Source of the DNA: Candidatus Poribacteria bacterium
GTDB lineage: Bacteria; Poribacteria; WGA-4E; GCA-2687025
DNA length: 64,000 nucleotides
NCBI GenBank assembly: GCA_963665845.2
Contig: OY762492.1
Span: forward strand, 3,776,001-3,840,000
Direction of reading: 5' to 3'
Part shown: piece by piece, positions 6,744 through 48,329 of the stretch
How the letters are laid out: each line of letters opens with the position of its first letter
Numbering within the stretch: the stretch's first letter is position 1
Program-made: the position numbers and the translations under genes
Notes under the pieces: generated by a model
Told to the model about the DNA's origin: nothing
Database searches by the model: none
The model's input: only the letters and a program-made list of their open reading frames with translations

Positions 6744-6932
6744 CTGATCTCATGCGTAAAGTTGAGACATTTGAACGACCAAAGCCTTTATTCATGGGAA
6801 AAGGCGCCGCTAACCAGACCGTCCCCCGCTTCCGCGAGGGCATGCATTCCCGCGTAAGCGGGAATCTAGAGGCGCCGCAGACGATGTCCGCGTTCATCCG
6901 CCGACATGTCCCAACTAAAAACGTAAGGTCAG
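6744..6932 (+). mobile_element. MITE-like element, copy 1 (189 bp, with an extra internal module)
   Basis: Imperfect ~26-bp terminal inverted repeats CTGATCTCATGCGTAAAGTTGAGACA ... TGTCCCAACTAAAAACGTAAGGTCAG; internal REP-like palindrome; homologous to 14613-14780, 30481-30648 and 41660-41827. Confidence 0.8.
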
Positions 6933-12569: not shown

Positions 12570-14606
12570 ATGATCGTTTTTGGGCGGCATATTGACGGGT
12601 ACCATGACGTCGAGAATCAGATGGCGGAGGATCTGCGCCGACGGGCGGAAGCGCATTTTCGCCGCCAAGAACGGGAGCGCGCGCAGATCGCCACCGCCGC
12701 CGACTTTGAAGCGCGCCGAAGCCGAATTCAGCAGCGTTATCTGGAGGCGCTCGGCGGCCTCCCGACAGAGCGAACGCCGCTGAACGCCCGCATAACAGGA
12801 CTCCTCCAGCGAGACGGCTTCCGTATCGAGAAGCTGATCTATGAAAGCGTCCCGAACTTCTATGTCACCGCGGCGCTGTATGTCCCGGACGGGATAGAGG
12901 CGCCGACGCCGGCGGTCGTCTTCGCGCACGGGCATGCGGACAGCGGCAAGTCGTACCCCGTCTACCAGTCGGTTTGCGTTGATCTCGCCTCCGCCGGCTT
13001 TGTCGTCATGGCGATCGACCCGCTGGGTCAGGGCGAGCGGTTTCAGTATATGGACGCCGCGACGGGCAAACGGCTCATCGCCGGCTGCACAACCGACCAT
13101 ACGCATGCGGGGATGCAGTTCACCGTCGCGGGGGCGAGCATCGCCCGCCATTTTATCTGGGACCTGATGCGCGGGATCGACTATCTTGAGACGCGGGCGG
13201 AAGTGGACGCGGACAAGATCGGAATCACCGGAAATTCAGGCGGAGGGACGCAGTCGTCGCTGCTCATGATGTGCGAGCCGAGGCTGGCTGCCGCCGTCCC
13301 ATGCACCTTTATCATGACGCTGGAATCGTATATGCGGACGGGGCAGGGGCAGGACAGCGAGCAGATTGTGCCGGGATGTTTTGCGCATGGACCCGACCAT
13401 GACGATTACATTACGGCGATGGCGCCGAAGCCTGTTCTGGTCGGCTCCGTCGCATACGACTATTTCCCGATCGAAGGCGCGATGGAGGCGGTCAAGCGGG
13501 CGAAGCGGATGTACGCCCTTTACGGCGCCAGCGACAAGGTCAACATCGCCGTCTCCAACGCGCGGCATGAATACACCCCGAAGCTGCGCCAAGCATGCGT
13601 CAACTGGTTCAAGCGGCATCTGAAGGGCGAGGAGCCTGATTTCAAAACGGGAACGCCCGAAACGCTGCCTGAACAAGATCTGTGGGCAACCTCAAAAGGG
13701 CAGGTTCTGCTGGAGTATCCCGACAGCTTGACGGCGCACCATCTGAACAAGCGGCGCGTTCAGAAAACCCCCCCTCCCCCCTTACAAAGGGGGGCAGGGG
13801 GGTTTGACCGCAAGCCGTTGTCGGCTGAAGAGGCGCGCGCCGCCGTCGTCAGACGCCTCGGCATTGACGGCGACCGTTCCCGCCCGATCTATCCGCGCAT
13901 CATCTATGAAGGGAATAAGGACGGGTTCGGCGTCGAGAAAATCTTTTTCTTTTCAGAACCGAGAATCGCTGTGACGGGCGTTTTCATGCGTCCGCCGGCA
14001 GAGACGGCGCCTGTCCGAACCGACATCGTCCTGTTCGACAAAGGAACAAGCGAGGGGCCGGAACGCGCCGACTGGATCCAAGAGCGGCTGAACGCCGGCG
14101 TTCAGCTGTTTCTGTTCGATGTCCGCGGGACGGGAGCCGTCGCGCAGCGCCACTTCAAACCCGACCGGGAACCGTACACCGCCGCCTACAAGATGGCGTG
14201 CGACGCGATGATGCTCGGCGTCTCGACGACCGGCATGCGCGTTTTGGACGCCCTCCGCGCGTACGACTATCTGAAAACGCGGGCGGATGTGAACGAAATC
14301 GGCATGGTCGGCTTTGAGCGCGGGGCGATCTACGCCTATTTCGCCGCCGCTATTGAAACGGGAATCGCATCCGTTCAGTTGTACGACATGCTCGCCTCGT
14401 ATCAGAACCTTGTCGAGACGCGGTATTACGACAGGACGCGCTACCATCTCGACATCCTGCCGTACGGCGCATTGAGCGCGTTTGATCTTGGAGACCTGCT
14501 GCCCTGCTTTGAGGGGCGAAGCGTTGAGTTGATCAGCCCGCGTACGGCGACCGGCGAACCGATGAGCGATGAGGAGCTGGAGCGTCTCTTTTGGAGCAAG
14601 AAATGA
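12570..14606 (+). CDS. Two-domain alpha/beta hydrolase (acetylxylan esterase-like)
   Basis: GNSGGG nucleophile elbow, HGH, DPLGQGER; second, degenerate hydrolase domain. Confidence 0.82.
   Translation: MIVFGRHIDGYHDVENQMAEDLRRRAEAHFRRQERERAQIATAADFEARRSRIQQRYLEALGGLPTERTPLNARITGLLQRDGFRIEKLIYESVPNFYVTAALYVPDGIEAPTPAVVFAHGHADSGKSYPVYQSVCVDLASAGFVVMAIDPLGQGERFQYMDAATGKRLIAGCTTDHTHAGMQFTVAGASIARHFIWDLMRGIDYLETRAEVDADKIGITGNSGGGTQSSLLMMCEPRLAAAVPCTFIMTLESYMRTGQGQDSEQIVPGCFAHGPDHDDYITAMAPKPVLVGSVAYDYFPIEGAMEAVKRAKRMYALYGASDKVNIAVSNARHEYTPKLRQACVNWFKRHLKGEEPDFKTGTPETLPEQDLWATSKGQVLLEYPDSLTAHHLNKRRVQKTPPPPLQRGAGGFDRKPLSAEEARAAVVRRLGIDGDRSRPIYPRIIYEGNKDGFGVEKIFFFSEPRIAVTGVFMRPPAETAPVRTDIVLFDKGTSEGPERADWIQERLNAGVQLFLFDVRGTGAVAQRHFKPDREPYTAAYKMACDAMMLGVSTTGMRVLDALRAYDYLKTRADVNEIGMVGFERGAIYAYFAAAIETGIASVQLYDMLASYQNLVETRYYDRTRYHLDILPYGALSAFDLGDLLPCFEGRSVELISPRTATGEPMSDEELERLFWSKK
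13764..13807. repeat. CCCCCTT-N3-AAGGGGG hairpin repeat inside a CDS
   Basis: AAAACCCCCCCTCCCCCCTTACAAAGGGGGGCAGGGGGGTTT; intergenic relatives at about 22680, 24338, 38560, 48498 and 50525. Confidence 0.78.
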
Positions 14607-15805
14607 GGCGGGCTGACCCCATGCCTAAAGTTGGGACATTTGAACAAATGATCGCTCTATTTATGGGAAAAAGGCGCCGCCAACCAAGCCGTCATTCCCG
14701 CGTAAGCGGGAATCTAGAGGCGTCGCAGAAACTGTCCGCATTCGCCTGCCGACATGTCTCAACTAAAGACGTAAGGTCAGGATGGGCAATTGCGCTCGCG
14801 TTGATCTTATGCGCGGGAACCGCATGGGGAACTGAACATGCGGCGCCGTTTGCGGAATTCGCGCTGGAGAAGGCGGCGGAAGCGGAGCGTCTCAAAACGG
14901 CCGTTGTGAAGGGGGAGGACGGGTGGCTCTTCTTTGCGCCGGAGCTGCGCAGCCTCGGCGTTGGAGAGTTTTGGGGACAAAAGGCGGCGCAGGTCAGCAA
15001 AACGGCCAACCCCGAATACGCCGACCCGCTCCCCGCCATACTGGACTTCAACCGTCAGCTGAAGGGCGCGTCCATACGTTTAATAATGGTACCCGTTCCC
15101 GCGAAGGCGGCCGTCTATCCCGACAAACTGTCCGCCCAGTTTCCTTTTCATAAAGAAAAAGAGGCGGAACGGTACGACGCCAACGCGGCGCGCTTTTACG
15201 ATCTCCTGCGCGACAACGGCGTCGAAGTTCTCGACCTAACGCCGATATTTTGGAAGGCGCGCCTTGAGGCGACGCCGACCGACCCGCCGCTTTACTGCCT
15301 GCAGGACACGCACTGGTCGGGGCGGGCATGCGAACTGGCGGCGCAGGCTATAGCCGAAGCGGTCGGAGAGCCGAGCTGGTTTGCGCAGATCGAAAAACGC
15401 GCCTATGAAACGACCGAACGCGAAACGATCATCGAAGGCGACCTGTGGAAAATGGCGGGAGACGCCGCGCTGCCCAAAGAGACGCTGCGGCTCCAACATG
15501 CGGACGCGGGCGTCCGGCGGGAAAGCCCCGTTCTGCTCTTGGGCGACAGCCACTGCCTCGTCTTTCATGACGGCGGCGATATGCATGCGAAGGGGGCGGG
15601 GCTGGCGGATCATCTGGCGGCGCGGTTCGGCATCCCGGTCGATCTGCTGGGCGTGCGCGGGTCGGGGGCGACGCCGTCGCGCATCGCGCTCTTTCGACGG
15701 CGCGACAACCTCAAAGGCAAGCGGGTTGTCATATGGTGTTTCAGCGCGCGGGAGTTCACCGAAAGCGCGCAGGGCTGGCGGAAAGTTCCAGTCATTCAAC
15801 CGTAG
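14603..15805 (+). CDS. AlgX/AlgJ-like SGNH-fold periplasmic protein with an in-frame MITE in its signal peptide
   Basis: GEDGWLFF, VPAKAAVYPD, DTHWS and LLGDSH motifs. ATG overlaps the upstream stop. Removing 14613-14780 gives MRRGWAIALALILCAGTAWG. Confidence 0.8.
   Translation: MRRADPMPKVGTFEQMIALFMGKRRRQPSRHSRVSGNLEASQKLSAFACRHVSTKDVRSGWAIALALILCAGTAWGTEHAAPFAEFALEKAAEAERLKTAVVKGEDGWLFFAPELRSLGVGEFWGQKAAQVSKTANPEYADPLPAILDFNRQLKGASIRLIMVPVPAKAAVYPDKLSAQFPFHKEKEAERYDANAARFYDLLRDNGVEVLDLTPIFWKARLEATPTDPPLYCLQDTHWSGRACELAAQAIAEAVGEPSWFAQIEKRAYETTERETIIEGDLWKMAGDAALPKETLRLQHADAGVRRESPVLLLGDSHCLVFHDGGDMHAKGAGLADHLAARFGIPVDLLGVRGSGATPSRIALFRRRDNLKGKRVVIWCFSAREFTESAQGWRKVPVIQP
14613..14780 (+). 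mobile_element. MITE-like element, copy 2 (168 bp, in-frame in a CDS)
   Basis: TIRs CTGACCCCATGCCTAAAGTTGGGACA / TGTCTCAACTAAAGACGTAAGGTCAG; internal GTCATTCCCGCGTAAGCGGGAATC. Confidence 0.85.
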
Positions 15806-15819
15806 AAAGAAAAAGCGAT

Positions 15820-18800
15820 ATGGACGCGGCAATTCGAGACTACATCAAAGCGCTGAACGAGAACCTAGCGAAAGGAACGGCGGGAGAGCATACGCATCGC
15901 CCCGCGCTGAAAACGTTTATCGAAGCGGCGTTCAACGATGTCCATGCCGTCAACGAACCGAAGCGCATCGAGTGCGGATCGCCCGACCTTCAGATCGTGA
16001 AGAAAGGCGCAAGCCCGCTGACGGTCGGATATATCGAGGCGAAAGACATCCATGTCGATTTGAAAGCCATCGACCATGACAGCGGCTTAAGGAACCCGAA
16101 AACACCGAACGGACAGCAGCTGAAACGTTACCGCGAAGGTTTGCCGAACCTCATCTTGACGAATTATCTCGATTTGTATTGGTATGTGGACGGCGAACGT
16201 CGGCTGGACGCTTGCTTAGCTCAAGTGTCCGCGGGCATGTACAAGGCAAGTTTAGAGCTCGCGCCGCGCGAACTTCTGAACGGGTTTATGTCCCATTCGC
16301 TGATGCCGATCGCGCGCCCTGACGATCTCGCGCAGCGCATGGCGGGGCTGGCGCGGCTCATACGCGAATCGATACAGGACAGCTTCAACAGCGACGAGCC
16401 GCCCGCCGACCTGCAGGAGCTTTATGAAGCGTCTGAGCAGGCGCTGGACCCTGAATTGAAGCTGGACGACTTTATCGACATGTTCACGCAGACGCTCGCA
16501 TACGGGCTGTTTGCGGCGCGCGTCAACCATGATGAGACGGATCGGTTCGACCGCCAGAAAGCGGCGTATGAGATTCCGTCGCCCAACCCGTTTATCCAAA
16601 AAATGTTCCATCTGATTGTCGGTCCGCAGCTGAACAATACGCCGTTCGTTCATTATGTGGACGATCTGACGCGGCTGCTCAACAACGTCGACATGCATGC
16701 GCTGCTCGCCGACTTTGGACGCGGGACTGGCTTGCAAGACCCGATCATGCATTTCTACGAAACGTTTTTGGACGCTTACGATCCAGCGCTGCGGAGACAA
16801 CGAGGCGTGTACTACACCCCCAGCGCGGTCATCGGGTATATCGTCCGGTCGGTCAACATTCTCCTGAAGGAGCGGTTCGGCTGCATTGACGGGCTTGCCG
16901 ACCCGTCCAAAATAAGGCGTCCTGCGGACTCTCACCGCGTCTTGATTCTGGATCCCGCCTGCGGCACCGGCTCCTTCCTGTATGCCGTTGTGAACCATAT
17001 CCGCGATCATTTTGAGACAAGCGGACGCGCCGGCATGTGGAAAAACTATGTCAAAGAGCATCTATTGCCGCGCCTGTTTGGGTTTGAGCTGCTGACAGCG
17101 CCGTACGCGATGGCGCATCTGCGGCTCTGGATGCAGCTCTCCGCGCTGGACAAGGCGCCTGATCAGCGCGGCGCATGGGAGTATGAATTCGCCCCGAATG
17201 AACGAATCGGCGTCTATCTGACCAACTCGCTGCATAAAGCCGAGGCCTTACAGAAGCCGATCGGATTCCTCGGCGTCTTGACCGACGAAGCGAACGCCGC
17301 CGTCAACATCAAAAGCGAACTGCCTGTCATGGTGGTTCTCGGCAACCCGCCTTACGCCGGGCATTCCGCCAACAAGGGCGCATGGATCCGGGAGAAAATT
17401 GACGATTACAAGAAGATCAACGGCGAATCGATCCATGAGCGGAATATAAAGTGGCTGAGCGACGACTATGTGAAGTTCATTCGGTTTGGGCAGTGGCGCA
17501 TCGAAGAAACAGGGTCGGGGATTCTCGCCTTCATCACGAATCATGGGTATATCGACAACGTTACCTTTCGAGGAATGCGCAAGAGTTTGCTGGAAACCTT
17601 CGACGAGATTTATCTGCTGGATTTACACGGGAACGCCCGCAAAGGCGAACAGGCGCCGGACGGCGGGCCTGACGAGAACGTCTTCAATATCCAGCAGGGA
17701 GTCGCCATCGGCATCTTTGTCAAAAATGAACGGAAGGACGGGGAGAAAAAGGCGTTAGCGTCCGTTTACCATGCCGATTTGTGGGGCATACGGGATGAGA
17801 AATACAAGGCGCTGAACGAGACGGATTTACGCGGCACAGACTGGACAACAGTAGCGATAAAGGCGCCACAATACTACTTCAAGCACAACGGGGATGTGAA
17901 ATTAGAGGCTGAATGGCTGGAGTGGCCCAAGATCAACGACATCATGCCGGTCAATTCGGTGGGCATCAGAACGGCGCGCGACAAGCTGACGATTCATTTC
18001 GAAAAAGAGAATCTGATCAACACGATTCGCGAGTTTGCCGCCTTGTCGCCCGAAGAAGCCAGAGCGCGCTTTCATCTTCGACCCGATTCGCGCGATTGGA
18101 AAATCGAGTTGGCGCAAACCGATCTGAACGAATCGCAGCATTCGAATGAGAACGTCGTTCCGATTCTTTACCGCCCATTCGACAACCGATGGACATATTA
18201 CACAGGCAAGAGTCGCGGCTTTCACTGCATGCCTCGTCCGCAGGTGATGCGCCATATGCGGCGAGCAGAAACCATCGGTTTGCTTTTCGTGCGGCAGGTT
18301 ACATCTAAGGTCGGCTATACTCATTTTGGAGCGACTCGATACATCGTCGAAGGCGGCGCGCTTGGGAACGATATGGCAAGCGTCGCTCCGCTTTATCTGC
18401 AGCCGGGAGACGCGCCTAAATCCAGCCTCCCTGATCTGGGTCTACTGAAGCCGAACCTAGACGCCGCGTTCATCGAGACGCTGGAGGCGGCTCTTCGTCT
18501 CCGCTTTGCGCCTGACGGACCGGGCGATCTGGAGGAAACCTTCGGTCCGGAGGATGTGTTTCATTACATTTACGCCGTTTTCCATTCTCCCACCTACCGC
18601 TCCCGTTACGACGCCTTTTTGCGCATCGATTTTCCGCGCGTCCCGCCGATTTCGGATGTCGGTCTGTTTCGCCGTCTGGTTGAACTGGGTCGGGAGTTGA
18701 CGCAGGCGCATCTGTTGGAGTCGGCGGCGGTTCAGAATTTCAGGTTGAAGTTTCCGGAGGCGGGGGAGAATATCGTCGAAAAGAGCCATCCGAAGTATGT

Positions 18801-19104
18801 TGAGCCGGGCGCATCGTCGGGCTTGGAGGCGGGTCGGGTCTATATCAACAGCGGCGCTTCGACGTTGACGGAGCCGAGAGGCGGTCAATATTTTGAGGGC
18901 GTTTCGCCGGCGGTGTGGGAATTTCAGCTGGGCGGTTATCAGCCGATGCAGAAGTGGCTGAAGGATCGTCAGGGTCGGGCGTTGAGTTTTGACGATCAGA
19001 CGCATTACATGCGCATGGCGGGGGCGTTGGCGGAGACGCTTCGGCTGGCGCCGTTGATTGACGAGGCGGTCGGCGAGAGCGCGGATCTGTTCGCCACCGC
19101 ATGA
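15820..19104 (+). CDS. Fused type IIG-like restriction endonuclease / N6-adenine methyltransferase with a type ISP-like C-terminal specificity domain
   Basis: N-terminal PD...IEAK nuclease motif; GVYYTP, LDPACGTGSF and GNPPY; C-terminal YRPFD, DFPRVP and GGYQ...KWLKDR. Confidence 0.88.
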   Translation: MDAAIRDYIKALNENLAKGTAGEHTHRPALKTFIEAAFNDVHAVNEPKRIECGSPDLQIVKKGASPLTVGYIEAKDIHVDLKAIDHDSGLRNPKTPNGQQLKRYREGLPNLILTNYLDLYWYVDGERRLDACLAQVSAGMYKASLELAPRELLNGFMSHSLMPIARPDDLAQRMAGLARLIRESIQDSFNSDEPPADLQELYEASEQALDPELKLDDFIDMFTQTLAYGLFAARVNHDETDRFDRQKAAYEIPSPNPFIQKMFHLIVGPQLNNTPFVHYVDDLTRLLNNVDMHALLADFGRGTGLQDPIMHFYETFLDAYDPALRRQRGVYYTPSAVIGYIVRSVNILLKERFGCIDGLADPSKIRRPADSHRVLILDPACGTGSFLYAVVNHIRDHFETSGRAGMWKNYVKEHLLPRLFGFELLTAPYAMAHLRLWMQLSALDKAPDQRGAWEYEFAPNERIGVYLTNSLHKAEALQKPIGFLGVLTDEANAAVNIKSELPVMVVLGNPPYAGHSANKGAWIREKIDDYKKINGESIHERNIKWLSDDYVKFIRFGQWRIEETGSGILAFITNHGYIDNVTFRGMRKSLLETFDEIYLLDLHGNARKGEQAPDGGPDENVFNIQQGVAIGIFVKNERKDGEKKALASVYHADLWGIRDEKYKALNETDLRGTDWTTVAIKAPQYYFKHNGDVKLEAEWLEWPKINDIMPVNSVGIRTARDKLTIHFEKENLINTIREFAALSPEEARARFHLRPDSRDWKIELAQTDLNESQHSNENVVPILYRPFDNRWTYYTGKSRGFHCMPRPQVMRHMRRAETIGLLFVRQVTSKVGYTHFGATRYIVEGGALGNDMASVAPLYLQPGDAPKSSLPDLGLLKPNLDAAFIETLEAALRLRFAPDGPGDLEETFGPEDVFHYIYAVFHSPTYRSRYDAFLRIDFPRVPPISDVGLFRRLVELGRELTQAHLLESAAVQNFRLKFPEAGENIVEKSHPKYVEPGASSGLEAGRVYINSGASTLTEPRGGQYFEGVSPAVWEFQLGGYQPMQKWLKDRQGRALSFDDQTHYMRMAGALAETLRLAPLIDEAVGESADLFATA

Positions 19105-41659: not shown

Positions 41660-41827
41660 TCGACCTTACGTCTTTAGTCGGGACATGCCGGAATGGGAAC
41701 GCGAACGTCTTCTGCGGCGCCTCTAGATTCCCGCTTGCGCGGGAATGACGGTCTGGTTGGCGGCGCCTTTTTCCCATGAATAAGGGCTTTGGTCGTTCAA
41801 ATGTCCCAACTTTCAGCATGAGGTCAG
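41660..41827 (-). mobile_element. MITE-like element, inverted copy (168 bp)
   Basis: Reverse complement of the 14613-14780 element, with both TIRs. Confidence 0.82.
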
Positions 41828-43315: not shown

Positions 43316-44038
43316 TCAGTCGCCCCAGATCTGCGCGGATTTCTGCCGCGGCTCCACCGACAGCGCGTCCCCGCCAAACGGGATAGAGGAGCCGACCAGC
43401 TCAAAGTCGTCGAACGAGAACGTTCCGTAATAGATGACCAGGCCGATGCCTCCAGACTTGGCCGAATCCGCCCAGGTCACTACGAGCGGTTCGCCGTCGT
43501 CGATCTGGAAGGATATCTGGTCCCTGCCTCCATCAAGCGTTTCAACGGACGCCTCAATGTTGTACCAGACGCCCGTTTCAAATTCCTGGTCTCTCCAGAA
43601 TGTGCCGAAGCTGTCGGGGGTATAACTCCAGATATCCGCGCGCGCCGTCTGCGGATTGATGGAGCATTCGTGGTAGTATCCTTGTTCAAGGTCGGAGTAG
43701 AGATAGACCCCAAAGTACGTGTTGATCCCGACCGTCAGTTCCGAGTCCATGCGCGCCCGGACGCGCAGCGTGTAGTTCTTCCATTGAGACGGGTCGGAGC
43801 CTGCAGGCTTCAATTCCAAAATGCTCCAAGAATTTGGTTGTTCGATCCAGCCTTTGAGAACGTTGTTCCCATCCTCGTCCTTCTCTTCTTCCCATGACTC
43901 AATGCCTTGAGCGAAGTTGTAAATTTCCCAGTCGTCCAGCCCTTCGTCTTCGAAGCTGTCTTGCCAGACGCCTGCAAAGGACGGCAGCGCCGCCGCCGCC
44001 GCTATCGTCAACGCCATCGTCCGAATCAGAATCCGCAT
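43316..44038 (-). CDS. Secreted beta-sandwich (DUF1080/ConA-like) paralog 1; C-terminal motif truncated
   Basis: Signal peptide, WQDSFED, NYTL, GVWYNI, SGGIGL and SFDDF; ends [14 protein letters not shown]. Confidence 0.75.
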
Positions 44039-44067
44039 GCCGCTTTCTCCTCTTTTGAACGCCGTTC

Positions 44068-44817
44068 TCATCGTTTCAGGTTTGCCCATATTTGCGCCGC
44101 CTTGCCGGTTGGCGAGACGGAAAGCGGACCTTTTCCGCCGGTCGGTATCGATTCGCCGGTGACAAGCACCTCGTCGAACGAAAAGACGCCGCGCCCAATC
44201 GTCAATCCGACGCCGCCCGACCCGATGCTTGCGGGCCAATCTACAATGAGCGGCTCGTCATCGTCCACCCGGAAAGTGATGCGGTCTCTGCCGGTCTCCG
44301 CGTCCGTTTCCACGGTCGCCGAGATGTCGTACCATCGTTCACCCTCAAACATCCGACGCAATCTAAACACGCCGAAATCGTTCTCGGTGTAGTAGCGCAC
44401 CTCGGACAAGCTCTGCTCAAGCCGCGCGAGACAGACCAGCTCCGTGACGCCGTCCCATTGATCGTAGAGGTTGAACCCGAAGATCGCCGCTTCGCCGTCC
44501 TGAATTCTGGTGTCCATTCGGGCGCGCGCCTGAATCGTGTAGTTTGTCCACTGGCTTGTGTCCACATTGGGCGGTCTAAGACGCAAAGTGCTGACCAGTG
44601 TGGGTCCATGTATTTCGCCGGTGAGAATGCCGTTGCCCAGCTCCGTTCGCACCTCCCATTCGGCTTGAGTTGGATCGTTCGCTCCCTGCGGATCCGTGAA
44701 CGCTTCCCAGTTGTCCAGCCCGCCGTCTTCAAAATCTTCATGCCACACGCCCGCCGAAGCTTGTAAGACCAGAATCGCCGCGGCTGCGAAAACCGTTGTT
44801 CTTGCCAATGTTCGCAT
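44068..44817 (-). CDS. Secreted paralog 2
   Basis: Same motif series; ends SVSPTGKAAQIWANLKR. Confidence 0.78.
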   Translation of the reverse strand: MRTLARTTVFAAAAILVLQASAGVWHEDFEDGGLDNWEAFTDPQGANDPTQAEWEVRTELGNGILTGEIHGPTLVSTLRLRPPNVDTSQWTNYTIQARARMDTRIQDGEAAIFGFNLYDQWDGVTELVCLARLEQSLSEVRYYTENDFGVFRLRRMFEGERWYDISATVETDAETGRDRITFRVDDDEPLIVDWPASIGSGGVGLTIGRGVFSFDEVLVTGESIPTGGKGPLSVSPTGKAAQIWANLKR

Positions 44818-44883
44818 AAACCTTCTCCATGTTCTTCAACCCCATGATACACTGCAGACGCCGAAGCCTGCAACATGGGGGCG

Positions 44884-45654
44884 CTATTCCCGACTTTTCA
44901 GCTCCGCCCATATCTGCGCCGAGAGACCCGCTGGGGAGACCGACCATGGCTGTCCGTCTGGGATGGAGTCGCCCTCAACGACGAAATCGTCAAATGAGAC
45001 GCGCCCGTCGCTGACGATGAGACCGACGCCGCCTGAATGCAACTGCCGTTTACTCGTAATCTCTAAAGCCACATGATCTTCCACCGTGAAAGTGACGCGT
45101 TCGGAATCGTCCAGCGTCTCAATGGTCGCTGTCAGGTCGTACCATACTCCCTCTCTATGCTCCAAATTTAAAGGGCCTCCTATGCCTAGACCAAGTCCTC
45201 CCGGACCTTGGGAATGCGTTACAATTTGCGCCAGATTTGCCTGCAGAAATTTGAGATAGGCGAGGTTGTACTGGTCTATGTCAAGGCGATCGTAGAGCAT
45301 GAGTCCAAAGCGGACGCCCCGCGGTTTCGATTCCAGGCGCGCTTTGACATTGACCGTGTAATTATTCCAGTCGTCTGTGTCAACGTCGGCAGGTTTGCGC
45401 GGCTTCAGCTGCAGGAAGCTCATATGCCCCGGTCTAGCTTCGCCGACAACGAACCCGTCCTTTTCATCCCAACTTTCGGCGCCAGGATCGAAATCGTAAA
45501 CGACCCAGTCGTCCAAACCGCCGCCTTTAAAATCGTCATGCCATGCGCCGGCGAAGGCTGTTGAAACGATCCACGCCGACGCAACGGCGGCGGACGCCCA
45601 AACGAGCCATGCATATCGGCGCGCGCTGTTCAAACGAATCATCGTATGCCGCAT
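44884..45654 (-). CDS. Secreted paralog 3
   Basis: Same motif series; ends SVSPAGLSAQIWAELKSRE. Confidence 0.78.
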   Translation of the reverse strand: MRHTMIRLNSARRYAWLVWASAAVASAWIVSTAFAGAWHDDFKGGGLDDWVVYDFDPGAESWDEKDGFVVGEARPGHMSFLQLKPRKPADVDTDDWNNYTVNVKARLESKPRGVRFGLMLYDRLDIDQYNLAYLKFLQANLAQIVTHSQGPGGLGLGIGGPLNLEHREGVWYDLTATIETLDDSERVTFTVEDHVALEITSKRQLHSGGVGLIVSDGRVSFDDFVVEGDSIPDGQPWSVSPAGLSAQIWAELKSRE

Positions 45655-45688
45655 GTCTGCCCTCCAATGTTCCGAACGCGTCTGCGGT

Positions 45689-46459
45689 TCATCTGCTTTT
45701 CAGCTCCGCCCATAGCTGCGCCGAGAGACCGGCTGGGGAGACCGACCTTGGCTGCCCGTTTCCGCCGTTTGGGATGGAGTCGCCCTCAACGACGAAATCG
45801 TCAAATGAGACGCGCCCGTCGCTGACGATGAGCGCGACGCCGCCTGAAACCACCTGCGCGTTCCATTCGGTCATGAACGGAGGATTATCGTCCACCTGGA
45901 ATGTGATGCGTTCGGAATCGTCCAGCGTCTCAATGGTCGCCGTCACGTCGTACCACACTCCCTGCTCCACATTGAACAGAAAGAAATCGTTGCCGGATCC
46001 ATTCCCTACGCGGATATGCATTTGAACGCCCGCCTGATGGTATAGGAAAAAGATCCAGTGGAACATGTTCTGGTCAATACGGTCATAGAGCGCGAGTCCA
46101 AATCTGGCGTTCTGGTCGTCCTCCGGTTCCGATTCCAGACGCATTTTGACCTTGACCGTGTAGTTTTGCCAGTCGTCGGTGTCCACGCCGGCAGGCTGGC
46201 GCGGCTTCAGCTGCAGGAGGCTCCAGGCTGTTGTCAGATTAATCTCGCCGACAACGAACCCGTCCTCTTCGTCCCAGCTTTCGGCGCCAGGGTCGAAGTT
46301 GTAAATGACCCAATCTTCCAATCCGCCGCCCTCAAAGTCGTCATGCCATGCGCCGGCAGAGGCGGTTGAAACGATCCACGCCGACGCCGCGGCGATGGAC
46401 GCCCAAACGAGCCATGCATATCGGCGCGCGCTGTTCAAACGAATCATCGTATGCCGCAT
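45689..46459 (-). CDS. Secreted paralog 4
   Basis: Same motif series; ends SVSPAGLSAQLWAELKSR. Confidence 0.78.
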   Translation of the reverse strand: MRHTMIRLNSARRYAWLVWASIAAASAWIVSTASAGAWHDDFEGGGLEDWVIYNFDPGAESWDEEDGFVVGEINLTTAWSLLQLKPRQPAGVDTDDWQNYTVKVKMRLESEPEDDQNARFGLALYDRIDQNMFHWIFFLYHQAGVQMHIRVGNGSGNDFFLFNVEQGVWYDVTATIETLDDSERITFQVDDNPPFMTEWNAQVVSGGVALIVSDGRVSFDDFVVEGDSIPNGGNGQPRSVSPAGLSAQLWAELKSR

Positions 46460-46520
46460 GTTTGCCTCCAAGTTTGCCTCCAAGTTTGCGCTTTACAATT
46501 CTGGGAGAAGCGCGCGTCAG

Positions 46521-46551
46521 GCGGTCATGCCGAACCATGCGGCATGACCGC
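46521..46551. terminator. Intergenic stem-loop (terminator or mRNA-stabilising hairpin)
   Basis: GCGGTCATGCCG-N7-CGGCATGACCGC, a perfect 12-bp stem; no clear U-tract. Confidence 0.45.
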
Positions 46552-46595
46552 GTTGACAAACTTCCTCCGTTCAACGAATGGAACGGGCTTGAGGC

Positions 46596-47366
46596 TTACC
46601 GGCTTTTCAGATCGCCCCATAGCTGCGCCGCGAGACCGGCTGGAGAGACCGACCTTGGCAGCCCGTTTCCGCCGTTTGGGATGGAGTCTCCCTCAATGAC
46701 GAAATCATCGAACGAGACGCGCCCGCCGCCGACGATGAGCGCGACGCTGCCTGAAATCGCCTGCCCATTCCATTCGGTCATGAACGGCGGATTATCGTCC
46801 ACCTGGAATGTGACGCGTTCGGAATCGTCCAGCGTCTCAATGGTCGCCGTCACGTCATACCACACTCCCTGCTCCACATTGAACGGAAAGAAGTCGTCGC
46901 CGCCTGCATTCCCTATGCGGATATGCATTCGAACGCGCGCCTGATGGTATTCGAGAAAGATCCAGTGGAACGTGTCCTGCTCAATATGATCATAGAGCAT
47001 GAGTCCAAAGCTGGTGTTCTGGCCGTCCTCCGGTTCCGATTCCAGACGCATTTTGACCTTGACCGTGTAGTTTTGCCAGTCGTCGGTGTCCACGCCGGCA
47101 GGCTGGCGCGGCTTCAGCTGCAGGAGGCTTATGAATCCTGGCTGATCAATCTCGCCGACAACGAACCCGTCCTCTTCGTCCCAGCTTTCGGCGCCAGGGT
47201 CGAAGTTGTAAATGACCCAATCTTCCAATCCGCCGCCCTCAAAGTCGTCATGCCATGCGCCGGCAAAGGCTGTTGAAACGATCCACGCCGACGCCGCGGC
47301 GACAAACGCCCCAACAAGCCATGCTGATCGGCGCGCGCTGTTCAAACGGACCATCGTATGCTGCAT
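46596..47366 (-). CDS. Secreted paralog 5
   Basis: Long stretches identical to paralog 4; ends SVSPAGLAAQLWGDLKSR. Confidence 0.78.
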   Translation of the reverse strand: MQHTMVRLNSARRSAWLVGAFVAAASAWIVSTAFAGAWHDDFEGGGLEDWVIYNFDPGAESWDEEDGFVVGEIDQPGFISLLQLKPRQPAGVDTDDWQNYTVKVKMRLESEPEDGQNTSFGLMLYDHIEQDTFHWIFLEYHQARVRMHIRIGNAGGDDFFPFNVEQGVWYDVTATIETLDDSERVTFQVDDNPPFMTEWNGQAISGSVALIVGGGRVSFDDFVIEGDSIPNGGNGLPRSVSPAGLAAQLWGDLKSR

Positions 47367-47582
47367 GCGCGTCCTCCATGTTTGCGCTTAATGACCATAG
47401 AATACATTGCGCAGTCTGAATCCGCAAACAGAAACGCCGATCATAGCGGCGGCGCCTGTAGGCGGCGGCATGCATTGCGCGGGAGCGCGCCGATTCAGGC
47501 TGCTATTCCCGCGCAATGCCACTCCTTATCGGCGCCGTCCAGACAGCCGATTCTTGTCCAATCGGCATTTGCGCGTCGGGCG

Positions 47583-48329
47583 TTACTGGCGTTTGATTTC
47601 TCCCCAGATCTGCGCGGCGCGTCCAGCGGGCGAAACGGATGTTTGCGCCATGTGGCCGCCGTCCGGTATGTTGTCGCCTTCGACGGAGAAGTTGTCAAAC
47701 GAGGCTTGCCCGCCTTCTACGATGAAGCCGACGCCGCCGGAACCGATGGAAGCTTGCCATGTCAATCCGAGCGTGTCGCCGTCGTTTATTTTGAAGGCGA
47801 TCGTTTCGGTGTCGCCGTCCGTTTCGATCCGCACCGCCAGGTCGTACCAGACGCTGCGTTCGATAACAAACGGAAATGTGTCAGAACCTGCGCCGTTGCC
47901 GATGCGAAGATACAGCAGCACATTCTCATCCTGAAACTGGAGCAAGCAGAGATGGTACATCGTTTCTTCGAATCGGTCGTACACGGCGAAGCCGAAGCTG
48001 GTCGAGCCGCCTGGGTCCGGCTCGGAGTTCAAGCGCAGCCGGGCGCGGACGGTGTAGTTTGACCAGACGCTGACGTCTTCGCCTTCCGGCTTCAGCTGCA
48101 GGATTGAGAAGAAGCCGGCGACGTTGATCTGCCCCGTCATGACCCCGTCTTTTTCTTCCCAGGATTCGACGCTCAAGTCGGCCTTGTAGATCTGCCAGTC
48201 GTCCATGAGGCCGTCTTCAAAATCGTCCACCCAGATTCCGGCATGAGCCGCGGACGCCGCCAAAAAGGCCGCCGCCAAAAGACCGATTCGAGTCGAAGCG
48301 CGGAACATTGCAGTCGCTCTGTGTCGCAT
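47583..48329 (-). CDS. Secreted paralog 6
   Basis: Same motif series; ends SVSPAGRAAQIWGEIKRQ. Confidence 0.78.
   Translation of the reverse strand: MRHRATAMFRASTRIGLLAAAFLAASAAHAGIWVDDFEDGLMDDWQIYKADLSVESWEEKDGVMTGQINVAGFFSILQLKPEGEDVSVWSNYTVRARLRLNSEPDPGGSTSFGFAVYDRFEETMYHLCLLQFQDENVLLYLRIGNGAGSDTFPFVIERSVWYDLAVRIETDGDTETIAFKINDGDTLGLTWQASIGSGGVGFIVEGGQASFDNFSVEGDNIPDGGHMAQTSVSPAGRAAQIWGEIKRQ

Follow-up and report, generated by a model that had tools for sequence, protein, structure and literature searches.

Short palindromic repeats that are read in frame as part of a host protein have been described from Rickettsia and Yersinia. Nearly half of the copies of three families of Rickettsia palindromic elements (RPE) lie in genes, going by the account in PMC10969869, and in Yersinia pestis 90 nt of the 168-bp repeat RU-2 are described at the 5' end of the gene YPO1552 (PMC2759123). 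N-terminally extended signal peptides are described from autotransporters, which are exported by Sec (PMC3297439). Here we report a 168-bp MITE, or miniature inverted-repeat transposable element, inserted in frame in the signal-peptide n-region of a gene encoding an AlgJ/AlgX-like protein in a Candidatus Poribacteria bacterium, likely a sponge symbiont. The window analysed comprises 64,000 nucleotides (assembly GCA_963665845.2, contig OY762492.1, positions 3,776,001 to 3,840,000 of the forward strand); coordinates without a prefix refer to this window and those prefixed G000 to the genome studied (3.98 Mb). The event is known in kind from the in-frame repeat fusions of Rickettsia and Yersinia, and this is a clean new case that is unusually well resolved by the combination of a candidate parent insertion sequence (IS), a target duplication, two relatives with empty sites, and a branch test.

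The element extends from 14613 to 14780, starts with CTGAC and finishes with GTCAG, and has no stop codon in the frame of its host, the frame of ATG 14603 running on to 15805 to give 400 aa. A preliminary description of the locus had proposed a stop-free MITE of 56 codons inserted in frame in a signal peptide, and both the length and the open frame are borne out, though the insertion point lies behind the first base of codon 4 and the element is out of codon phase. Support for the insertion itself comes from two relatives whose site is empty, a genome of the same genus (G001) and the source of a contig in run X5, one of four sequencing runs compared (X1, X3, X4, and X5). The G001 ortholog is 89% identical over residues 58-400, lacks the element, and has an 18-residue leader, with flank mapping giving a net difference of 168 + 6 = 174 bp. 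A contig from run X5 (∼6.5% DNA divergence) joins 14607 to 14792 and thus represents an empty site, and the two nearest orthologs in the database have a length of 342 aa (400 - 58). Because these three comparisons agree, the net addition is, on sequence comparison, 58 residues (3-60) and not 56. Excision of 168 bases reproduces exactly the 20-residue peptide of the preliminary description, of which two residues come from the duplication, the native signal peptide being 18 residues long. The possibility it had raised that all orthologs contain the 56-aa segment does not hold, as the inserted peptide was found in 0 of 120 homologs. An N-terminal hydrophobic core is present in 111/120 homologs and begins by residue 33 in 110 of those; in P0030, another homolog, the N-terminus is long and unrelated and resembles a mis-called start. 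The names of the homologs are consistent with an origin in Candidatus Poribacteria. A metagenome scan recovered 46 loci at 33-66% identity, none near enough for dating the insertion. The features of the locus and of the candidate partner element are:

14593-14596, + strand: Shine-Dalgarno-like GGAG, 6 nt before the start; kept in G001 and the X5 contig
14603-15805, + strand: host gene, 400 aa, AlgJ/AlgX-like SGNH protein (PF16822, 96.2 bits, cut-off 26.5)
14603-14606, + strand: ATGA overlap of the host start with the stop of a 678-aa alpha/beta hydrolase gene (12570-14606); both G001 and X5 retain it
14607-14612, + strand: target duplication, left copy GGCGGG, part of the 174-bp net difference from G001; duplications in the family most often measure 6 bp
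14613-14780, + strand: MITE, 168 bp, in the sole open frame of the family consensus
14613-14639, + strand: left terminal inverted repeat, 27 bp, 26/27 identical to the IS (G000:C1:561322-562588) at its left end
14690-14717, + strand: NTS/dRS3-type hairpin inside the MITE, one mismatch to the 28-nt motif as given in PMC11893778
14754-14780, - strand: right terminal inverted repeat, 27 bp, 24/27 identical to the IS right end and 20/27 to the left repeat
14781-14786, + strand: target duplication, right copy GATGGG, in agreement with the empty site in X5, the closer relative
14783-14830, + strand: native part of the predicted signal peptide with its hydrophobic and cleavage regions (residues 61-76), closing with A-W-G
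G000:C1:561322-562588 (L024:1294-2409), - strand: IS4-like element, single copy

The two duplication copies have decayed and are still alike at 4/6 bases; drift has likely affected the left copy, because it is the right copy that agrees with the X5 start. With a profile derived from 109 full-length copies of the MITE found by BLAST, we obtained 1119 distinct matches in the genome, of which 148 are full length and 68 exactly 168 bp. Exact flanking duplications of 6, 7, and 8 bp are found at 27, 20, and 7 of the 148 copies, respectively, where shuffled flanks are expected to give 0.3, 0.2, and 0.1. For exact duplications of any length from 5 to 9 bp (5 bp, n = 3; 9 bp, n = 2), the count is 59/148 against ∼0.9 expected by shuffling. 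The number of full-length copies and a duplication frequency far above the shuffled expectation establish that the element is real and not a chance match. Among copies with exact duplications the preferred flanks are CAA-N3-[duplication]-N3-TTG, of which the 14613 site shows AA and TT in the corresponding positions. Copies at E ≤ 1e-15 occur in two of the 41 genomes searched (G000 and G001), and six of nine mappable MITE sites, comprising the 14613 site and five others, are empty in G001; some copies are only 0-2 bases apart in sequence. The family satisfies the description of a prokaryotic MITE in being short and transposase-free, with terminal inverted repeats, duplications, many copies, empty sites, and a cognate IS.

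Full-length copies are almost exclusively intergenic, with 1/148 clearly within a host gene (14613) and one more ambiguous. By simple gene calling, which gave 3089 genes and 87.7% coding sequence, none of the copies interrupts a gene body and none has coding sequence on both sides after its removal. A gene frame reaches back to the element end in 57 cases, among which only 14613 combines an open element frame with the lack of an ATG or GTG within 40 codons downstream. Of the six frames of the family consensus a single one is open; the host-read frame is open in 39/68 copies of 168 bp and any other frame in at most one. Since 39 of these copies share that frame, we rejected its openness as a sign of selection. 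The net insert length is divisible by three at 23/59 copies, and because only one frame of six is open as well, the readable fraction of genic insertions is a few percent.

The analogy to RPE drawn in the preliminary description therefore stands for the outcome, an in-frame read-through, and fails for the habit, the family being otherwise intergenic. Both are palindromic repeats of ∼150-170 bp read in frame within a host protein, comparing by description (PMC10969869), whereas the copies of the present family end in terminal inverted repeats, duplicate their target, and can be assigned a named cognate IS, with 1/148 in a gene, and the insert lies in a leader that is likely removed rather than in a folded protein. 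RU-2, likewise compared by the description in PMC2759123, contributes part of a repeat to the start of YPO1552, whereas in the present case the complete element, both ends and duplication included, sits in a pre-existing signal peptide for which there are empty-site orthologs. A narrow literature search found no report of MITE or RPE insertion in frame in a signal peptide, which does not show absence from print, and among the papers listed in a similarly narrow search there was no mention of Poribacteria.

A genome-wide RPE-like invasion of coding sequence was rejected on the grounds that no copy is flanked by coding sequence on both sides, and the one partial match inside a called gene proved to be a MITE holding an IS fragment. 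At six other copies (C1:354133, 2996507, 3134832, 3352342, 2045988, and 2486461) the frame is open or a called gene is reached, but a downstream ATG or GTG is kept or the copy lies past a stop. Among these, the copy at L124:1508-1675 (G000:C1:2996507-2996674) is located exactly at a stop codon, where its CTGA end provides the same TGA and leaves the protein unchanged relative to G001. The ambiguous second candidate (L122:954-1127; G000:C1:2528353-2528526) is a 174-bp copy with a 6-bp duplication immediately after an ATG that has GGAGG 7 nt upstream. It is open via internal indels (-4, -1, and +11) into the signal peptide of a WD40/planctomycete cytochrome c protein, and the site is empty in G001; an ATG remains 8 nt past the element, so read-through is not required. 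An identical MITE with identical flanks is present at G000:C2:10980-11147 and C1:1160317-1160484, and C2 may duplicate part of C1.

The core of the NTS hairpin is present in 144/148 copies, and 421 NTS-like sites occur genome-wide (up to one mismatch, one position relaxed). The middle of the MITE resembles the NTS/Ssn-related motif in being a 28-nt oriented hairpin, but here the hairpin rides in a terminal-repeat MITE whose ends indicate a DDE transposase system and not SsnA, as far as the motif is described in PMC11893778. Three copies of ∼490-540 bp (G000:C1:1740542-1741028, 2694713-2695251, and 3261229-3261716) contain the inner NTS hairpin unit repeated in tandem, from which we deduce that the hairpin amplifies inside the MITE. 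Two further MITEs (G000:C1:3073389-3075095 and 469845-470456) have another transposase gene, IS110-like by eye, inserted beside the NTS hairpin. An Rfam scan of 14000-16000 returned two chance matches and no family.

Genome-wide pairing of terminal repeats led to a 1267-bp element (G000:C1:561322-562588) with the 27-bp ends of the MITE and CTGAC termini, which also contains the sole PF01609 match of the genome. Its interior is unrelated to that of the MITE. The transposase frame comprises 371 aa with DDE residues D87, D168, and E267, picked by motif, whose spacers of 80 and 98 compare with the IS4 range D(60-110)D(100-150)E, the second falling just below it; the YREK motif corresponds to Y260-R263-E267-K274. 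In the outline given in PMC2266710, the IS10 subgroup of IS4 is characterized by a length of 1200-1350 bp, CT ends, 9-bp duplications (∼10 bp family-wide), and YREK. The element agrees in its length, CT ends, single transposase frame, and YREK, but differs in that the MITE duplications are mostly 6-7 bp rather than 9 and in its CAA...TTG target preference. Because of this misfit, and because the best NCBIfam model (NF033591, IS4) scores 77.8 bits, under the cut-off of 152, we file the element only as IS4-like; it may represent an unplaced IS4 subgroup. The shared ends make it the likely mobiliser of the MITE. Close but broken relatives of the IS were found only in G003 among 61 relatives, and a transposase search of species-genome contigs gave 123 pattern matches, none confirmed as a close relative.

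The host protein retains the motifs DTHW (235-238) and GDSH (314-317), which are present in 118/120 and 120/120 homologs, respectively. We take the D-x-H and G-D-S motifs to be its catalytic triad. Its matches to the Pseudomonas structures of AlgJ (4o8v) and AlgX (7ula, 4knc) are distant (E 1.5e-5 to 8.6e-4), with the PF16822 SGNH-like domain, both motifs, a predicted N-terminal export signal, and an MBOAT partner in the genome in common. The host gene differs from its Pseudomonas counterparts in being detached from algI and algJ: an MBOAT (AlgI-like) gene and an AlgJ-like gene with other genes between them are located ∼263 kb away at C1:3.52 Mb (G000:C1:3520936-3527630, L126), so that the host gene does not form an operon with an AlgI-type MBOAT. 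This dispersal is a feature of the genus, shared by the insert-free G001, whereas most matched relatives keep two SGNH genes adjacent.

We propose that the 168-bp nonautonomous transposon was cut and pasted by the genome's IS4-like transposase into the position after the second codon of the AlgJ/AlgX-like gene, creating a 6-bp duplication, and that the site would have been chosen by sequence, given the AA and TT that match the flanking preference of the family. Three conditions may have allowed the insertion to survive: sense orientation, the sole open frame, and an added length (168 + 6) divisible by three. Survival may also have been favoured by the placement of the extra residues, basic and non-hydrophobic, ahead of the hydrophobic core. 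Ribosomes would still start at 14603, aided by coupling to the upstream stop, Sec would export the precursor, and signal peptidase I would cut after A-W-G, discarding the 58 extra residues. The unchanged mature enzyme would then O-acetylate a cell-surface glycan together with the AlgI- and AlgJ-like proteins encoded elsewhere in the genome. We regard as probable the central part of this scheme, namely translation from 14603, Sec export with a 76-residue signal peptide, cleavage after A-W-G, and a mature protein that is unchanged; the insert looks like tolerated baggage, not adaptation. If correct, this suggests that a signal-peptide n-region is able to absorb 58 foreign residues. It is also of consequence for annotation, as gene callers place starts after such elements and lose the signal peptide.

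Evidence that the gene is still in use comes from its substitutions. Compared to G001, the host gene has a dN of 0.055 and a dS of 0.274, and its dN/dS of 0.199 ranks at the 70th percentile among 270 gene pairs sampled over 400 kb of G001, for which the median is 0.154. For the branch test, 40 of the 62 differences to X5 were listed and polarised by hand with G001, and the counts below refer to these 40: this lineage has 19 (8 nonsynonymous, 11 synonymous), X5 has 18 (8 and 10), and 3 are unresolved, giving an omega of 0.23 on this branch compared with 0.26 on the insert-free X5 branch. After comparison with ten G001 copies, the MITE copy has 5-6 private changes, plus 2 in the duplication; a first count of 8 (6 nonsynonymous, 2 synonymous) was lowered when three proved to be shared with G001 copies. 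The private changes amount to ∼3-4%, where the branch has a synonymous length of 7.8%. Neutrality since an insertion of this age predicts 18-23 nonsynonymous changes, where 8 were seen (Poisson p 0.006-0.0003), indicating that the host gene body is still under purifying selection. The changes in the insert itself are all or nearly all amino-acid changing, which suggests that the leader is unconstrained.

A number of observations weigh against a gene that is still expressed and exported as proposed. The branch test comprises 19 changes over 193 codons, and the insertion date is taken from the copy's own changes, which may partly derive from an unsampled source copy. The protein has 22 substitutions absent from three close orthologs, compared with 12 for P0004, and three of them fall at columns >90% conserved (L285A, F344I, and V382A), although the insert-free P0004 also has three such changes. 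The element folds as a stable hairpin from 10 nt past ATG 14603 (z -3.3) and its AAGG end is followed by an out-of-frame ATG at 14782, either of which could lower expression. On the side of mobilization, the IS is a single copy without a target duplication whose frame overruns the right end, and for these reasons it may be inactive now. When the sequence around the start was folded, the Shine-Dalgarno region was partly paired to a similar degree whether the insert was present or removed, which points neither way.

The hairpin near the start and the lineage-specific substitutions are what would be expected had the insertion crippled the gene, through poor initiation or failed export, to leave an emerging pseudogene that has not yet acquired a stop. 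Detachment from algI and algJ would fit as well, suggesting a gene that may be dispensable, but it is common to the insert-free G001. We consider this outcome unlikely given that omega equals that of the X5 branch (Fisher p = 1.0), that 8 of the 19 changes are nonsynonymous against ∼75% if neutral (p = 0.003), and that the copy is old, with 17 differences from the nearest G000 copy and a closer resemblance to a G001 copy.

The point of initiation is the next consideration. Three further in-frame ATGs lie within the element (14621, 14648, and 14663), and a functional gene starting at one of these would have an n-region of 54, 45, or 40 residues and escape part of the hairpin; GAGG is present 12 nt before 14621. 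The preliminary description had left the choice between a long n-region and an internal ATG undecided, and the former is favoured because ATG 14603 retains the conserved GGAG 6 nt upstream and the ATGA overlap, neither of which is found at the internal ATGs. None of these has a well-spaced Shine-Dalgarno sequence, and 14621 sits in a paired terminal repeat. Initiation within the element is unlikely as well, in our judgment, and slightly less probable than loss of function. A start beyond the element, which the preliminary description had named as an alternative, would have to use TTG 14801 within the hydrophobic core, the only in-frame start there, as no ATG or GTG follows the element in frame.

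With translation from 14603, the leader that emerges has 60 residues with 13 K/R and 4 D/E and no hydrophobic stretch >1.25, followed by the native core, where the best 11-residue hydropathy (2.7, residues 62-72) is found. Signal peptidase I sites have small residues at -3 and -1. The A-W-G site fits this pattern, and together with the hydrophobic core the sequence has the features of a Sec/signal peptidase I substrate. Tat motifs have an F-L-K-like tail after the arginines. The RRR in the insert is without such a tail, and Tat export was dropped. Autotransporter signal peptides are similar in that an ordinary hydrophobic core is preceded by a long extension at the N-terminus, but their extensions are described as conserved and functional in PMC3297439, whereas this one is recent, confined to one lineage, and without sign of constraint. 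The same account reports that the extension of EspP slows Sec translocation and delays cleavage, which raises the prospect that the basic leader alters the route, giving slow or cotranslational export or an uncleaved inner-membrane anchor. Purifying selection on the gene body would be expected either way. We think such an alteration improbable, and more so than an internal start, as A-W-G is unchanged from the ortholog and the amino-acid changes of the insert speak against any role under constraint. Simple export and cleavage of the 76-residue signal peptide remains our preferred interpretation.

Misplacement of a repeat during assembly is a negligible concern: no listed contig covers the whole element, its central hairpin breaking contigs, but contigs from three runs of one study, possibly the source (X1, X3, and X4), match both junctions with zero differences (13900-14692 or 14686, and 14703-16000), the copy is at least 17 bases from every other 168-bp copy in the genome, and it is flanked by a decayed duplication. 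No X1, X3, or X4 contig joins the flanks so as to skip the element, with the limit that rare variants are lost from contigs and that no contig crosses the central hairpin.

The positions of the remaining copies provide a separate lead. TTGAC starts 9-14 bases outward at 54/296 element ends, and such ends face a gene start more often than others (47/54 vs. 140/242; Fisher p 4e-5, on rough gene calls in which two ends represent one duplicated locus). A -10-like hexamer, by a pattern of our own devising, follows 15-19 bases on at 37/54 of these compared with 319/1243 other intergenic TTGAC (p 2e-10). Full-length copies located ∼10 bp upstream of -35 boxes are possibly the result of promoter-directed targeting, though selection may also explain their position; the arrangement would be new if due to targeting and not to selection alone. 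One narrow literature search found no report of promoter targeting by such elements, which does not show absence from print. A wider picture, which we put forward as tentative and rather doubtful, is that of an undescribed IS4-like system that would target promoters via a CAA...TTG dyad overlapping the sigma-70 -35 box, place its MITE in a safe harbour ∼10 bp upstream, and carry the Ssn hairpin there. The 14613 copy would then be a rare miss that was retained because it works as an extended signal peptide of 76 residues, a leader formed de novo out of selfish DNA.

Two other MITE copies in the window (6744-6932 and 41660-41827) are full length and lie upstream of sigma-70-like -35 boxes, at a distance of 9-14 bp. 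Directly after the host gene, positions 15820-19104 encode a Type ISP-like restriction-modification fusion with 74% identity to G001 and a dS of 0.60, far above its neighbours. Several coding repeats spaced 800-1000 bp apart (families D1, D2, D4, and D6) are found at 43500-48300 and probably represent repeated domains or paralogs.

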